Assembly (NCBI GenBank): GCA_965204745.1
Contig: OZ242010.1
Span: 896,001-960,000, forward strand
Length of the DNA: 64,000 bases
Direction of reading: 5' to 3'
Origin: Candidatus Latescibacterota bacterium
Lineage (GTDB): Bacteria; Latescibacterota; UBA2968
The notes beneath the pieces are model-generated. The model was not told the DNA's origin, did no database searches, and saw only the letters and a program-made list of their open reading frames with translations. Positions 13,031-63,338 of this stretch are shown one piece after another. The stretch's first letter is position 1. Each line of letters starts with the position of its first letter. The translations under genes and the position numbers were made by a program.

Positions 13031-13147
13031 TTAGCCACAAAAAGCACGAGCGGGGTACAACTGGCGACAGCCAGTTCAAAGACACAAAAGGTGAGCGATA
13101 TGTATAGGGGCGATGCCCCCGTGCTCGCCCGAAGATACAAGGGGGGT
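13031..13147 (+). repeat. Composite REP-like element (AACTGGC/GCCAGTT hairpin + GGGCGATGCCCCCGTGCTCGCCC hairpin + AAGATACAAG)
   Basis: Related copies near 34617, 52504, 54766(-), 56005 and 62217(-); partial copy at 19269. Confidence 0.8.
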
Positions 13148-25620: not shown

Positions 25621-25779
25621 ACCTATCCCCCGGCCCCTTTCCTACGGGAAAGGGGAGTAGCGTCCTTTGATGGCTTAATCAATGGCTGGTTTTAAGGGCG
25701 TTGCGCGAGGGCATAAAGCGATTAAAAATCCCTCACCCCTTCCCCTCGTAAAACCTCTCGCCATTCCCCCTTGTATCTT

Positions 25780-26155
25780 TGGATCAAGGGTTAATTAGGT
25801 GTTGCGCCCTCGTATCGAGACAAGCCATCTTGATGCTCGGCTCGGAGAAGGCCGGTCCCCCCCTTGAAGGCAATGACCTTGTTAGGAAGAGAGGCCCCCC
25901 GACCGCCGAGTCTATGCCGAAGAGTATCTAAGTCCATCGAGGCTGCATATACAAGGTCGGTAGGCTTGGCGCGAATGGTCGGGACGCGAACCCGAGCGCA
26001 CACCAGATCCCTTACAAACCCCTCATCACAGGAGGCCCCTATGTCGAACTCTCACTCCGCTTTTGCCGGCATTGATGTCAGTGCCCACACATTGTCCGTT
26101 GCCCTGTCCAGACCTGGACAAGATGTCCTGCAAGCGACCTTTGACAATGATCCCC
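25780..26155 (+). pseudogene. IS110 remnant: full left non-coding end + first ~38 transposase codons (ATG 26041)
   Basis: Colinear with 60893-61263; MSNSHSAFAGIDVSAHTLSVALSRPGQ. Confidence 0.9.
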
Positions 26156-54555: not shown

Positions 54556-54653
54556 CTACTGACCGCTTGGAACGTTCGGGCGAGCACGGGACATCGCCCA
54601 AAAAGGTGAGAGGTGAGAGGCAAGACGTGAGAAAGCCACCCCTCTTGTATCTT

Positions 54654-54704
54654 GGAAGAAAGGGTTAATTAGGTGTTGCGCCCTCGCATCGAGACAAGCC
54701 ATCT
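54654..54704 (+). mobile_element. IS110 left-end remnant (~50 bp)
   Basis: CCCCTCTTGTATCTT|GGAAGAAAGGGTTAATTAGG..GCCATCT matches 60878-60943; lies between 35-bp direct repeats at 54556 and 54747. Confidence 0.8.
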
Positions 54705-58493: not shown

Positions 58494-60689
58494 ATGACCA
58501 ATAATTCTCATACCGCCGAACGGCTCACCCCGTTGCATCGCATCAAACTGTTGCTTCTAGCGGGGTTGATCGCCTTGGGTACTTTTGTGCAGTGCGGGCA
58601 ACCCGAACCCGAACCCGTGTCCGAGCCAGCGTCGGCGTCGCGGCCCAAGTACACCGGCGACCTTCCACAGTTGCAGGAACGCGGGGCCTTGCGCGTGATC
58701 GTGCGCCCGGATCCGATCAGCCACATGCCTCGTCGGGCAGAGCCGGTGACCCTGAACCACGACATCGCCAATGGCCTGGCAGAAGCCTTTAAGGTGAAGT
58801 TGGAACTCGTCAATGCCGAGAATTACGCGCAGATGATCGACAAACTCCTCGAAGGTGAGGGCGACATCATCGCCGCCAGCTTGACCGTGACGCCAGAGCG
58901 CGAACAGGTCGGGGCGTTTTCCGTGCCCTATCTGTACGTGGATGAGTACTTGATAACAGCAACCGGGGACAGCCTGCCGCAGACCATAGACGAACTCGCG
59001 GGCATGGTAATCAGCGTGCGGCAGACGAGTTCGTATCATCAAACCCTAGTTGATATTCAGAAGCGCGTCCCGTCTTTGACCATCCACGCCGCGCCCGAAT
59101 CGCTCAGCACCACAGCGCTGATCGACGGCGTCGCGCACGGCAAATTCACCGCGACCGTCTCCGACGCCCACATCTGGCAAGCCGTGTCCAGCTATTACGA
59201 CAGGTTGGCGACCCCACTCGTGCTGGCTGAAAATCGCCCCATCGCCCTGATGATGCGGCCCGGCGATGTGAAGCTCAAAGAAAAGGTGGATGAGTTCCTG
59301 CTCGCATACCAGTTCACGCGCCATCGGCAACAGACATTTGACGACGACCTGAGCGGCCTGAAAAAACGCCGGCGGTTGCGGATGATCACGCGCAACAATG
59401 CCATGACCTATTTTATCTACCGCGGCCAGCAAGTGGGCTTTGAATACGAACTCATGAAAAAATTCGCGTCCGAACACGACTTGCGCCTCGAAATCGTCAT
59501 TCCAGACAGCCATGCCGAACTGCTCTCGTACTTGAACGCGGGCAAGGGCGACGTCGTGGCCGTGGCAATGACCATCACCGAAGAACGGCAAGCGCAGGCC
59601 GCATTTACCCTGCCCTACAACGAGGTGGAAGAACTGGTGGTGGTGCGCGAAGAGGACCATTCAATTACCAGCTTGAAGGATTTGGCCGGGAGAACCGTCC
59701 ATGTGCGCGAGAGCTCTTCGTTTCACACCACCCTGACCGCGTTGCAAAATTCTATCGGCGGCCTCGAGATCGCGGCGGTTGCCGACCATATTGAAACCGA
59801 AGATATTTTGGCCGGGGTGGAAGCGGGCAAATACGATATTACGCTGTGCGACTCCAATTTGCTCGACGTGGAACGCGCTTATGGCCGCCGCCTCAAAGCC
59901 GCCTTCAGCATCAAACCCACCGCGTTGGGCTGGGCCGTGCGAAAGGACAATCCGGAATTGCTGGCCGCACTCGATCAATACATCGCACGCGAAAAAGGCG
60001 GTTTGTTTTTCAACATGATGAAAAAGCGGTATTTTCAGAACAAACGCGCAGTCGCCAGAGCCAAGGATTCCCTGCGGGTCGATCTGGGCGGGAAGTTGTC
60101 GCCTTATGACGACCTCGTCAAAAAGTACGCGTACCAATACGGGCAGGACTGGCGGTTGACCACCGCGCAGATGTACCAGGAATCCAAATTCGATCCCAAA
60201 GCCGTCAGTTGGGTCGGCGCGCAGGGCCTGATGCAGGTGATGCCGAGAACGGGCCGGCAGTTGGGATTCACCAAACTTTACGAACCCCACGAGAGCATCC
60301 ACGCGGGCGTGAAGTACATGCATCAACTCATCAACCGGTTCGATCACAACTTGCCAATGGACGAGCGGATTCGCTTCGCGCTGGCTTCGTACAATGTCGG
60401 GTACGGTCATGTGCTCGACGCCCGCCGCTTGGCGCGAGAAAAGGGATGGAATGCGGACCGCTGGTTCGGTCATGTGGAACGGGCCATGCGCCTGCTCTCC
60501 CAACCCGCTTACTACAAACGGGCGCGATACGGCTTTTGCCGCGGCAACCAACCCGTACACTACGTCGAGAACATCCAGAGTTTTTACGACGCGTATGTCG
60601 AAATCCTGAGCACGACCACGCCCACAACTCTGCCCCTCGTCGCGGGCTTCATCGGACGCCCATCCGCTATAACGCAACCGCATCGCTGA
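58494..60689 (+). CDS. mltF: MltF-like lytic transglycosylase with two SBP domains
   Basis: Two family-3 SBP-like repeats; QES.FDP, GAQGLMQ, ALASYNVG.GH. Confidence 0.88.
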   Translation: MTNNSHTAERLTPLHRIKLLLLAGLIALGTFVQCGQPEPEPVSEPASASRPKYTGDLPQLQERGALRVIVRPDPISHMPRRAEPVTLNHDIANGLAEAFKVKLELVNAENYAQMIDKLLEGEGDIIAASLTVTPEREQVGAFSVPYLYVDEYLITATGDSLPQTIDELAGMVISVRQTSSYHQTLVDIQKRVPSLTIHAAPESLSTTALIDGVAHGKFTATVSDAHIWQAVSSYYDRLATPLVLAENRPIALMMRPGDVKLKEKVDEFLLAYQFTRHRQQTFDDDLSGLKKRRRLRMITRNNAMTYFIYRGQQVGFEYELMKKFASEHDLRLEIVIPDSHAELLSYLNAGKGDVVAVAMTITEERQAQAAFTLPYNEVEELVVVREEDHSITSLKDLAGRTVHVRESSSFHTTLTALQNSIGGLEIAAVADHIETEDILAGVEAGKYDITLCDSNLLDVERAYGRRLKAAFSIKPTALGWAVRKDNPELLAALDQYIAREKGGLFFNMMKKRYFQNKRAVARAKDSLRVDLGGKLSPYDDLVKKYAYQYGQDWRLTTAQMYQESKFDPKAVSWVGAQGLMQVMPRTGRQLGFTKLYEPHESIHAGVKYMHQLINRFDHNLPMDERIRFALASYNVGYGHVLDARRLAREKGWNADRWFGHVERAMRLLSQPAYYKRARYGFCRGNQPVHYVENIQSFYDAYVEILSTTTPTTLPLVAGFIGRPSAITQPHR

Positions 60690-60708
60690 GTGACGCGGTT
60701 GACCTATC

Positions 60709-60757
60709 AAAAAAAATGAGAGGTTGCGACGAACTCGAGCGCGACCTCTCATTTTTA
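60709..60757. terminator. Bidirectional terminator after mltF
   Basis: AAAATGAGAGGT/ACCTCTCATTTT. Confidence 0.7.
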
Positions 60758-60790
60758 AGTTACTGACCACTTGGGCGGCGATGGGCGGGG

Positions 60791-60846
60791 ACTGACCACT
60801 GACCACTGACCACTGACCACTGACCACTGACCACTGACCACTGACC
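60791..60846 (+). repeat. Heptamer array (ACTGACC)x8
   Basis: Preceded by TTGGGCGGCGATGGGCGGGG, identical to the flank of the 56092 array. Confidence 0.95.
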
Positions 60847-60904
60847 ACTTGTTTCTTGCCTCTCCCCTCTTGCGTCTCCCCTCTTGTATCTTGGAAGTAA
60901 GGGT

Positions 60905-61085
60905 TAATTAGGAGTTGCGCCCTCGTATCGAGATAAGCCATCTTGATGCCCGGCTCGGGGAAGGCCGGCCCCTCTTGAAGGCGATGACCTTGTAGGTAAG
61001 ATAGGCCCCCCGACCGCCGGGTCTATGCCGAAGAGTATCTAAGTCCCTTGAGGCTGCATATACAAGACCGGTAGACTTGGCGTCA
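60905..61085 (+). ncRNA. Candidate IS110 bridge RNA
   Basis: 5' hairpin, then a loop matching the target, then a loop matching the donor (see findings). Ends are approximate. Confidence 0.65.
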
Positions 61086-61149
61086 ATGGTCGGGATCGAA
61101 CTCGAGCGCACACCAGACCCCTTACAACCCCTCATCACAGGAGGCCCCC

Positions 61150-62157
61150 ATGTCGAAATCTCAACCCGCTTTCGCCGGCATTGATGTCAGTGCCCGCACG
61201 TTGTCTGTTGCCCTGTCCAGACCCGGACAAGCTGTCATGCAAGCGACCTTTGCCAATGATCCCCAAGCCCATAAGCGGTTGCTGAAGTGGCTCACCAAGG
61301 GCGGGCACATGGTCTCTGTGTGCCTCGAAGCGACCGGGCTTTACAGCTTGGGGGTGGCCTTGGCCTTGCATCGGCATCGCCACACAAAGGTCATGGTCGT
61401 CAATCCCAAAGCGATGAGCAAGTACGGTCAAGCCCGCATGCAACGAGCCAAGACGGATGCGAAGGATGCGTTGTTGATCATGGATTATGCCGAGCGCATG
61501 CCGTTTGTGCCTTGGCAAGCGCCGAGTGAGCAACGGCTTCAACTGCAAGCCCTCACCAGACGCATTGACCAACTCAAGCAGGTGATCATCAGTGAACAGA
61601 GCCGCAACCACGCGCAAAGCTACCACATCCTGAGCACACGGCGCATCGCACGCGATATTCAGGTGAATATTCGACACCTCAAACGCCGGATTGCATACTT
61701 GGAAGACCAAGCCCTCGATCTCGTTTTGCACGATGAGACCCTCAAGCGCGCCTACCAACGCCTCTGCTCGACGCCTGGCATCGCACAAACGAGCGCCTTG
61801 CGGCTCTTGGCCGAGTTGACCCTTTTGCCTGAGGAGATGCAACCGCCCCAGTGGGTCGCACATGCAGGCCTGGATCCCAAACCCAAACAATCCGGAACCG
61901 CCAACCCACAAAGACGCATCTCGAAAACCGGGAATAAGTACCTCCGCCATGCCCTCTATATGCCTGCCTGGGTGGCCATCAGACACGAAGTCCATGTCAA
62001 AGCCTTCTATGACCAACTCATTGCCCGCGGCAAGAAACCTTTGCAGGCTATCGTTGCGGTGATGCGAAAGTTGCTCCATTCAATCTGGGGCATGTTGCGG
62101 CATGACCAAGATTTTGAGGGCGAGAAATTCTATCGAATCGCCCCGCAATCCCCTTGA
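61150..62157 (+). CDS. IS110 family DEDD recombinase/transposase
   Basis: GIDVS, LEATG, AKTDAKDA, TPGI, QSG, SKTGNKYLR, AVMRKL. Confidence 0.95.
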   Translation: MSKSQPAFAGIDVSARTLSVALSRPGQAVMQATFANDPQAHKRLLKWLTKGGHMVSVCLEATGLYSLGVALALHRHRHTKVMVVNPKAMSKYGQARMQRAKTDAKDALLIMDYAERMPFVPWQAPSEQRLQLQALTRRIDQLKQVIISEQSRNHAQSYHILSTRRIARDIQVNIRHLKRRIAYLEDQALDLVLHDETLKRAYQRLCSTPGIAQTSALRLLAELTLLPEEMQPPQWVAHAGLDPKPKQSGTANPQRRISKTGNKYLRHALYMPAWVAIRHEVHVKAFYDQLIARGKKPLQAIVAVMRKLLHSIWGMLRHDQDFEGEKFYRIAPQSP

Positions 62158-62291
62158 CCTTTAAGAGAGTATCTTACCTCTCCCGTCTTCCGTCTCACCT
62201 TTTACCACTGCCCGCCTTTGAACGGGCTATCGCCAGTTGTACCCCTTTTGTGCCTTTTGTGCCTTTTGTGGCTAAACTTTCATCTCACCTT

Positions 62292-63290
62292 TTACCGCTC
62301 TTGCACCAATTTCTCGAACTCTGAAGTCATCTTTTCCACGAACCCATCCTCTCGGCGCACGATCATAAACGCGGCCAAGCCGCGGGCTTCTGCAAATGCA
62401 AATCCCCTTTCCGGCCCCATCACGTTGATCGCCGTCGCCAAGCCATCCGCGTACAGGCAACTCGGATGCACCACGGACACGGACGCCAAGCCGTGCGTAA
62501 TCGGTCGGCCCGTGCGCGGGTCAAGGGTATGCGAATACCGCACCCCATCGCGTTCAAAATAATTGTGGTAATCCCCAGACGTCGCCAACGACATGTTTTT
62601 CAGTGCCAGCACCTTTTGCAACGCGCCCGGTTCTGTGGGACTCGCAATGCCGACCCGCCAGCGTTGGCCGAGGTGATTGCGTCCCTTGGTCCGCAACTCG
62701 CCGCCGATTTCGATAAAATAGCCATCCACGCCCAAACTATCCAAATAGCTCGCCACGCGGTCCACGCCAAAGCCCTTGGCTATCGCAGACAAATCGCAAT
62801 AAACCCCACCCACCTCTTTTTTGATCGCAGACGCAGACCGATCCACGCGAACCTTCTCGTAGCCCACCCGCGCTTTGCGTGCGGCTATCGAATCCGGCGG
62901 TGGCACGCGGTTCGGGATGGCGTTTGGGCCAAAGCCCCACAAATTGACCAATGGCCCAACTGTGACGTCAAACGCGCCATCGGACCAAGTGCTGATTTGA
63001 TGGGCAACGCGCAAAACCCGCGCAAAGTCCGGCGAGACGCGCACCCAGTTAGTCGAGCGCGAACGATTAAAGCGGCTGATCTCCGAATCCTTTCGATACG
63101 TGGACATCTGCCGGTTCACCTCGTCCAACCGCGCATCGATCTCCCGCGCCAATACCCGTGCGTCCAACGCGACCTCATCCCGCGCGATCTTCACCTGAAA
63201 CGTCGTCCCCATTGTCGAACCCGAGATCGCCATGAACGGCTCATCGCATCCGGCGAGGACAACCATCAAGATTGAAACCACCCAGCGCAT
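62292..63290 (-). CDS. apbE: FAD:protein FMN transferase lipoprotein
   Basis: LAGC lipobox, TMGT, DLSAIAKG, IGGE, ATSGDY, SHTLDPRTG, ADGLAT. Confidence 0.95.
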   Translation of the reverse strand: MRWVVSILMVVLAGCDEPFMAISGSTMGTTFQVKIARDEVALDARVLAREIDARLDEVNRQMSTYRKDSEISRFNRSRSTNWVRVSPDFARVLRVAHQISTWSDGAFDVTVGPLVNLWGFGPNAIPNRVPPPDSIAARKARVGYEKVRVDRSASAIKKEVGGVYCDLSAIAKGFGVDRVASYLDSLGVDGYFIEIGGELRTKGRNHLGQRWRVGIASPTEPGALQKVLALKNMSLATSGDYHNYFERDGVRYSHTLDPRTGRPITHGLASVSVVHPSCLYADGLATAINVMGPERGFAFAEARGLAAFMIVRREDGFVEKMTSEFEKLVQER

Positions 63291-63302
63291 TTCGCATCTC
63301 GC

Positions 63303-63338
63303 AAAAAAAAGCGGAGCCCGGCGCGCCGGCACTCCGCT
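63303..63338 (-). terminator. Terminator-like hairpin between nqrF and apbE
   Basis: Minus strand GCGGAG/CTCCGC stem + T-run. Confidence 0.6.

Follow-up and report, generated by a model that had tools for sequence, protein, structure and literature searches.

The window analysed here is a 64,000-nt stretch of the genome of a Candidatus Latescibacterota bacterium (assembly GCA_965204745.1, contig OZ242010.1, positions 896,001 to 960,000, forward strand; coordinates below are those of the window unless a genome is named). Positions 60885–62174 very probably hold an intact, recently active insertion sequence of the IS110 group, which encodes a DEDD/serine recombinase of 335 amino acids and whose left end specifies an IS621-type bridge RNA. 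Anatomy, conservation of catalytic residues, boundaries, covariation of guides with flanks and target preference were derived here from sequence. Target and donor positions are numbered as for IS621 in the text of PMC11208158 (left arm 1–7, core 8–9, right arm 10–14). The following features delimit the element:

60885–62174, plus strand: insertion sequence proper, 1290 bp including the right-end CT core; from empty-site reconstruction, the termini of relatives and 52 full-length genomic copies
61150–62157, plus strand: IS110-family DEDD/serine recombinase, 335 amino acids; Pfam PF01548 and PF02371, sequence matches in PDB to ISCro4 and IS621
60883–60884, plus strand: CT core of the left junction; flank CT conserved before TGTA[TC]CTT in relatives
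60885–60892, plus strand: left terminus TGTATCTT with the right donor arm (TGTAT) and a -10-like TATCTT at 60887–60892; conserved in all relatives, donor positions 10–14 as in IS621 according to the text of PMC11208158
62166–62174, plus strand: right terminus, left donor arm and core AGAGTAT-CT; from the sequence and the termini of relatives
60876–60882, plus strand: left target (positions 1–7, CTCCCCT), inside a heptamer array; from comparison of copies
62175–62179, plus strand: right target (positions 10–14, TACCT); from comparison of copies

The recombinase contains the Pfam domains PF01548 (DEDD_Tnp_IS110, 4.6e-23, residues 9–151) and PF02371 (Transposase_20, 6.6e-20, residues 203–287), and its phmmer matches among PDB sequences include ISCro4 (E 7.9e-41) and IS621 (E 1.9e-36). 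Residues D12, E60, D103, D106 and S248 align with the catalytic D11, E60, D102, D105 and S241 of IS621, as read from our own alignment with the residue names used in the text of PMC11208158 and an inferred two-residue offset of the PDB chain numbering. A long left end combined with a short right end is given in the text of PMC11208160 as a criterion for IS110-group elements. The left end here is 265 nt long (60885–61149) and the right end 17 nt (62158–62174). In addition to the two-domain recombinase, we found a two-loop left-end RNA whose target- and donor-loop guides match the flanks and the joined ends, and a CT (or NT) core at both junctions without other target duplication, with exact empty sites for 32 of the 52 copies.

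Both ends of the element carry TATCT, and the left boundary is thus not readable from a single copy. The pre-insertion site of each of the 52 copies was rebuilt at 19 candidate left cuts, and the resulting 18-mer was sought elsewhere in the genome. A cut after ...CCTCT, two bases to the left of the G|TATCT cut used in an earlier, sequence-only reading of this stretch, gave an 18-mer that exists elsewhere for 32/52 copies (379 occurrences), a cut one heptamer further left did so for 20/52, and the 16 cuts other than these and that of the earlier reading for none or one copy each. Relatives were fetched as six copies from genome G016, 18 from G018, three from G030 and single or double copies from seven more genomes (51–63% protein identity); G000 denotes the window's own genome, other G numbers the genomes of relatives, and L numbers loci in relatives. 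All 34 relatives' copies (27 from G016, G018 and G030, seven more distant) begin with TGTA[TC]CTT. Directly before it stands a flank CT in 26 of 28 copies of one set, the two others being G030 copies with AT, and in 7/7 of the more distant set. Their right ends read GAGAGTATCT in 31 copies and GAGAGTTTCT in two (G016), while that of L122 differs together with its left donor guide. Since TGTATCTT is preceded by unrelated flanks in G016, G030, G128, G101, G152 and G151, it belongs to the element. Empty-site counts and shared termini together place the element at 60885–62174 with CT cores at 60883–60884 and 62173–62174; judged by these comparisons, it starts at 60885 with TGTATCTT and not at 60892.

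The sequence-only reading had started the element at TGGAA (60892), with CCCCTCTTG-TATCTTACCT as a 19-nt target read by abutting guides and AGAGTATCT-TGGAA as the circle junction. It is true that CCCCTCTTG agrees with one junction at 9/9 positions and AGGTAAGATA with the other at 10/10, and the TATCT at both ends leaves room for such a cut as long as one copy is considered. That 19-mer occurs zero times in the 5.48-Mb genome, whereas CCCCTCTT[AG]CCT is found unoccupied 70 times, and only 2/52 rebuilt sites, both at one single place, exist elsewhere with this cut, compared with 32/52 for a start at 60885. The unrelated flanks before TGTATCTT in the six genomes named above argue in the same direction, the right donor guide would match at 4/7 positions only and rely on a CAAG found at chance level, and joining the ends would leave 10 nt rather than 17 between the -35- and -10-like hexamers. 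We consider this model very improbable, and its junction, which depends on a left edge set 7 nt inside the true one, and its target were rejected on the empty-site counts and the zero genomic occurrences. The 19-mer fuses two junctions into one sequence: from the left one it takes the left target, the core and the element's first 2 nt, and from the right one the element's last 3 nt before its core, the core and the right target. The two matches adjoin only because the target had been extended over 7 nt of the element. With the start at 60885 the guides overlap at the core, and of the longer target or different register suggested by the abutting matches only a shift of the left target guide by one position remains, as described below.

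The left-end RNA and its guides are composed as follows:

60925–60949, plus strand: 5' stem-loop, GUAUCGAGAU, loop AAGCC, AUCUUGAUGC; from the minimum-free-energy fold, absent from the cross-species consensus fold
60956–61012, plus strand: target-binding loop (TBL), outer stem 60956–60960/61008–61012 and 60963–60966/61004–61007 with an AA bulge; RNAalifold consensus of 24 sequences
60978–60991, plus strand: inner hairpin of the TBL, AAGG/CCUU (AAGG 60978–60981, CCTT 60988–60991); single fold and consensus, four near-invariant pairs, one compensatory change
61015–61082, plus strand: donor-binding loop (DBL) with a long outer stem and an inner hairpin 61042–61045/61052–61055; consensus fold, several outer-stem pairs with compensatory changes
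60969–60976, plus strand: left target guide (LTG) CCCCUCUU, top-strand sense, target positions 3–10; covaries with the flank in subfamilies v3 and C and in G016
60994–61000, plus strand: right target guide (RTG) AGGUAAG, reverse complement of CT+TACCT (7/7); covaries with nine different right targets
61001–61003, plus strand: putative handshake guide (HSG) of the TBL, AUA, complementary to donor positions 5–7 (TAT, 62170–62172); by the IS621 definition, covaries in L112 and L122
61032–61040, plus strand: left donor guide (LDG) AGAGUAUCU, equal to positions 1–7 of the left donor arm plus core; 9/9 to 62166–62174
61058–61066, plus strand: right donor guide (RDG) AUAUACAAG, of which AUACAAG (61060–61066) is the reverse complement of CT+TGTAT (7/7); from the sequence and relatives

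Both loops were recovered by RNAalifold from 24 left ends of eight genomes, with 34 pairs of which 16 show at least one compensatory change in an alignment that contains many near-identical left ends. The donor loop is closed by GTCTA (61021–61025) and TAGAC (61072–61076). The earlier identification as an IS110 element is supported, as are its CT core and a left-end bridge RNA that passes from 5' hairpin through target loop to donor loop like that of IS621, and all motifs named for it are present, that is CCCCTCTTG at 60969–60977, AGGTAAGATA at 60994–61003, AGAGTATCT at 61032–61040 (identical to the right end at 62166–62174), CAAG at 61063–61066, and both the AAGG/CCTT and the GTCTA/TAGAC stem. 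At the nucleotide frequencies of the left end (257 nt), chance would produce CCCCTCTTG, AGGTAAGATA and AGAGTATCT only 1e-3, 1.4e-4 and 5e-4 times. CAAG, put forward as the second donor guide, is expected about 1.15 times and therefore carries no weight; the real right donor guide is ATACAAG, which matches 7/7. Alternatively, the RDG may be taken as AU-(AU)-ACAAG, bulged by 2 nt in the way described for IS621; relatives have AU-AG-ACAAG, and L110 has AUUUGCAAG, in agreement with the IS621 bases named in the text of PMC11208158.

The window copy sits in a heptamer-array site, CTCCCCT-CT-TACCT, and its donor joint reads AGAGTAT-CT-TGTAT. On this target LTG and RTG share the core, with CCCCUCU of the LTG matching positions 3–9, and G60977, the last base of the motif on which the earlier match was counted, is probably a linker. 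The additional ATA in the RTG match corresponds, by analogy, to the handshake guide described for IS621, whose exact place it occupies and which in IS621 pairs with the top strand of the donor once strands have been exchanged.

Guides track flanks across subfamilies and species, which was the check proposed with the sequence-only reading. Within the genome, the single copy of subfamily v3 has the LTG window GTCCCTCTC and the RTG AGGTGAG at the site TCCCT-CT-CACCT. Four of the five copies of subfamily C (88–89% identity) carry CGCCTCTT with AAGTAAG, and the fifth TGCCTCTT with the same RTG; the left flank is CGCCT-CT in 3/5 and the right target TACTT in 4/5. The RTG/right-target pairs of the genome are AGGTAAG/TACCT, AGGTGAG/CACCT and AAGTAAG/TACTT, and those found elsewhere are AGAAAAG/TTTCT (G016), ACGTTAG/AACGT (G030, L122), AAGTGAG/CACTT (L123), GCGTGAG/CACGC (L124) and GGGAG/CT-CCC (G018). 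On the left side, LTG and left target covary as TCCCTCT, CGCCTCT, CTCGCCTCT (9/9, G018) and AAATAGTCT (9/9, L110). Matches amount to 7/7 for the RTG in most families and to 7–9 of 9 for the LTG, with an offset of +1 in G000 and G016. The handshake guide covaries with the donor as AUG/CAT in L112 and GUA/AAC in L122, where the third base stays unpaired. Handshake guides of bridge-RNA elements pair with positions 6–7 of the other DNA; the handshake on the DBL side is weaker, the first base alone pairing (A with T7). In L122 and L112, an altered right end is accompanied by an altered LDG. The Watson-Crick fraction was 0.81 for cognate guide/target combinations (n = 78) and 0.62 for non-cognate ones with the targets of other families (n = 702), fractions that are descriptive only because the sequences are related. 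Guide parsing covered 78 of 81 copies, and the remaining three (G030) were read by eye.

The same covariation bears on the idea that the left-end matches are fragments of heptamer arrays or termini left by past nested insertions or rearrangements, and not RNA guides. The genome is rich in CCTCTT(G/A) arrays, with 405 adjacent heptamer pairs, and the transcript is unobserved, both of which suit such an origin. Fragments would not explain that the matches lie at fixed places of a conserved two-loop structure in elements of 51–83% protein identity, that they change with the flanks, including the non-heptamer targets AACGT, TTTCT and CACGC, or that each loop has one sense and one antisense arm, as described for IS621. 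We find this origin hardly credible, the least probable of the readings considered, and treat the matches as guides.

In G018, L110, G030, G128, G101, G151 and G097, the 9 nt before the (G/A)AAGG hairpin equal the left target plus core (positions 1–9). The corresponding LTG window of G000 fits positions 2–10 with 7.71/9 versus 3.91/9 for positions 1–9, and that of G016 behaves likewise, whereas the window of G018 scores 1.39/9 at positions 2–10 versus 7.78/9 at positions 1–9. In the v3 copy, the ninth base of the window is C and target position 10 is C, where the element itself has T; this one copy suggests that the ninth base pairs with the target rather than being a passive linker. In the clade of G000 and G016 the LTG thus appears, by these alignments, to sit one base further right on positions 3–10, a small genuine difference. 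With this placement, LTG and RTG together would inspect C8, T9 and N10 on each of the two strands. As C-T-T stands in donor and target alike, a possible shift of the cleavage site is not readable from sequence.

A shifted core would leave the element and, within 1 nt, its boundaries as described and move the crossover of G000 and G016 to T-N at positions 9–10 (mostly TT) instead of CT at 8–9. The last two bases of the LTG window align with the core columns of the relatives, the better fit of the G000 and G016 windows at 2–10 is reversed in G018 and L110, the C-T-T shared by donor and target makes the junctions compatible with either core, and TT cores are tolerated by IS621 according to the text of PMC11208158. 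RTG, HSG, LDG and RDG all hold the CT register of the relatives, however, and in v3 (...CT-CACCT) the left junction has the donor T and the right junction the target C at position 10, which fits an exchange 3' of T9, although this is a single copy and repair of a core heteroduplex could blur the result. A T-N crossover seems to us improbable, and we retain the CT core.

The genome contains 52 full-length copies (eight at 100% identity, 39 at 96–97% and five at 88–89%), which comprise 15 distinct sequences, one of them present 30 times and another eight times. Matches of the recombinase that span residues 1–335 without a stop number 51 in G000 and, together with these sets of 30 and eight identical copies, indicate recent activity. 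Every copy sits in arrays of CCTCTT(G/A)-like heptamers, and among copies with the main guides the last seven bases of the left flank are CCCCTCT in 40/45. The right target TACCT, which forms an A-U pair with the RTG, was found occupied 24 times and unoccupied five times, compared with 17 and 65 times for TGCCT, which forms a G-U wobble (Fisher p = 5e-9, the sites not being independent). The fully paired target is visibly favoured over the wobble site, and site choice fits base pairing. Exceptional right targets are TGCCC and TACTT, in one copy each, and copy c5198949 has an additional C near its start.

At G000:C1:1121591-1124178, a 96% copy is followed head to tail by a 100% copy with TACCTCT alone between them, so that the left target of the second copy is made up of the right end of the first and its flank. 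Excerpts of a preprint (10.64898/2026.08.31.748434) report copy-and-paste behaviour for IS621, which would suit the expansion of copies in the present genome.

In this interpretation the TBL reads CTCCCCT-CT-T(A/G)CCT within CCTCTT(G/A) arrays, with the LTG CCCCUCU(U) pairing to the bottom strand and the RTG AGGUAAG to the top-strand core and right target, and the DBL reads the joined ends AGAGTAT-CT-TGTAT via the LDG AGAGUAUCU and the RDG AU(AU)ACAAG. After top-strand exchange, the AUA directly 3' of the RTG would act as handshake guide by pairing with the donor TAT. Circle formation, promoter activity and recombination at the CT cores are proposed here by analogy with IS621. The predicted circle or joined-end form would read ...GAGAGTAT-CT-TGTATCTTGG, and its junction would create a promoter for RNA and recombinase by bringing TTGACC to 17 nt from TATCTT. 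The upstream half of this putative promoter is the following feature:

62154–62159, plus strand: -35-like TTGACC, overlapping the stop codon, 15 nt from the element end; hexamer and distance conserved in relatives

By our own count, TTGACC/17-nt spacer/TATCTT has 9/12 consensus matches, within what our promoter scan accepts as a site. The RNA is predicted to be about 180–210 nt long, with its start a few bases beyond 60892 and its end near 61082–61103. The same scan of the integrated locus returned no promoter upstream of the RNA, its sole site being at chance level and inside the open reading frame.

Comparison with IS621 of E. coli (Durrant et al. 2024, PMC11208160; Hiraizumi et al. 2024, PMC11208158; PDB 8wt6) draws on the main texts of both papers. 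The donor bases are those of the residues named in the text of PMC11208158 (dA6, dT7, dC8, dT9, dT10, dG11, dT12, dA13 and dT14), since the text of PMC11208160 gives no donor letters. As far as these texts describe IS621, the two elements share both Pfam domains and all five catalytic residues, identical donor positions 6–14 (ATCTTGTAT), a left-end RNA in the order 5' hairpin, TBL and DBL, and the CT core. LTG and LDG have top-strand sense and RTG and RDG are antisense in both, a handshake guide lies 3' of the RTG, the outer stem has an A-bulge, a G-U linker precedes the RTG, and a right-end -35 and a left-end -10 meet at the joined ends only. The present element differs in its RTG of 7 nt, compared with 4 nt in wild-type IS621, its handshake guide of 3 nt instead of 2, its shorter linkers and its LTG on positions 3–10 instead of 1–9. 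At the protein level the relationship is distant (phmmer E 2e-36), and a blastn search with the element found no similar DNA in E. coli genomes. IS621 targets REP sequences, whereas the target here is a tandem heptamer array. The best sequence match with a solved structure is the recombinase of ISCro4 (PDB 9t56, E 7.9e-41, residues 7–332), a member of the same family that was compared at the protein level only. ISPpu10 of Pseudomonas putida is an IS110 element with all insertions in copies of one repeated intergenic sequence, according to excerpts of 10.64898/2026.03.19.712850; compared by this description only, it has another host and apparently another repeat type. Literature searches for IS110 elements with tandem or heptamer targets and for IS110 in Latescibacterota returned nothing on the present element, a result that extends no further than these searches.

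Several results weigh against an intact, active element with an IS621-type bridge RNA. The first two positions of the LTG window in G000 mismatch the target, and its fit at positions 2–10 instead of 1–9 departs from IS621. Some copies fit their guides poorly, namely two with the right target CCCGT (4/7 with the RTG), four with the left target TACCTCT, and copy c602784, whose guides misfit its own flanks (6+1 of 9, 5/7). Regarding the RNA, the near-identity of many aligned left ends means that the covariation counts overstate independent events, a scan of 60500–62500 against Rfam 15 (E ≤ 1) gave zero matches, and the single-sequence fold of 60892–61149 was no better than shuffled sequences (z = -1.09), so that the claim for structure rests on the alignment fold instead. 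No RNA sequencing runs are listed for the stretch and transcription of the left end is unobserved. In Logan contigs of four runs, which are short pieces with many array-driven joints, no joint from right end to left end was among those listed; two joints, 60885>62173 and 60885>62179, are too short-sided to be used.

Partial relatives of the element occur in the window and elsewhere in the genome. At 25772–26155, a truncated relative (89% identity over the first 380 nt, covering the left end and about 40 codons) differs in its target loop (LTG region GTCCCCCCCTT, RTG TAGGAAG) and is preceded by ...CCCCCT. A 59-nt left-end fragment at 54646–54704 (93% identity) stands after CCCCTCT and is followed by ACTGAC(C/T) heptamers and a GC-hairpin repeat. 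At G000:C1:2972659-2972850, a mini-derivative of about 190 nt joins the left end through the RDG ATACAAG straight to AGTATCT and flank, and looks as if the right end had recombined with the RDG-encoding DNA, which on its opposite strand imitates the right donor arm. The sole genomic ...CTTGTATCTTGCCTCTTACC, at G000:C1:4397649 (minus strand), is TGTATCT alone in a heptamer array with no element attached and may have been left behind when a former copy was deleted between its two GTATCT repeats.

The intergenic region that holds the element lies between a gene at 58494–60689 and one at 62292–63332 (minus strand), which we take from their translations to be mltF-like and apbE-like, and is built of short tandem repeats. 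Those at 60793–60849 and 62230–62262 comprise ACTGACC repeated eight to nine times, CCTCTTG-like heptamers and three units of TTTTGTGCC, types that recur genome-wide. An orthologous empty site was sought in relatives with the left flank as query, which matched in its mltF-like gene part only (query 1–410 to 1–582) and left the array unmatched; this search yielded no such site. G018 has a copy of its own variant (G018:C1:4493109-4495564; L033, L082; recombinase 76% identical) in the same intergenic position just downstream of the mltF-like orthologue, which could be an old shared insertion or the result of repeated hits on the same array.

The first eight nt of the element, TGTATCTT, occur 285 times in the genome, 211 times after CT (in the window, for instance, at 13141 and 52630, both on the minus strand). 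In 108 cases they continue as YGGGCGAGCACGGGGGCATCGCCCCTACACA..., a GC-rich hairpin module of a variable 80–280-nt intergenic repeat beside CCTCT arrays, and in about 15 further cases as CCTCGTAGGCACAGGCGTAGCC...; the first 20 nt or so of the short repeats are similar to the beginning of the left end in the G018-type element. Among the 108, a recognisable right end was present in 31, and 5/31 rebuilt sites exist elsewhere, with counts that track the heptamer phase, and GAGTATCT was found outside the right ends of elements and their left donor guides in unrelated contexts only; reading them as miniature inverted-repeat transposable elements is not supported. That the CT+TGTATCTT repeats are non-autonomous elements, or products of recombination through the donor arm alone ('half-match') by an IS110 recombinase and its bridge RNA, is an unlikely though not negligible explanation, and they may simply be array borders. 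If a non-autonomous or half-match origin were true, the element would shape the whole intergenic repeat landscape of the genome.

Once the left edge of the element is moved seven bases outward, its bridge RNA recognises target and donor essentially as expected from known IS110 elements. The element adds one more bridge-RNA insertion sequence to the IS110 group, and the register anomaly suspected in it is absent; a different register or longer target would have mattered for the engineering of bridge recombinases, which is not the case here. It illustrates the published mechanism cleanly in a natural setting, with 52 copies and at least four guide variants, each in the cognate heptamer variant, and the +1 position of the LTG and the CT|TGTATCTT half-sites offer modest leads on off-target and half-match recombination.

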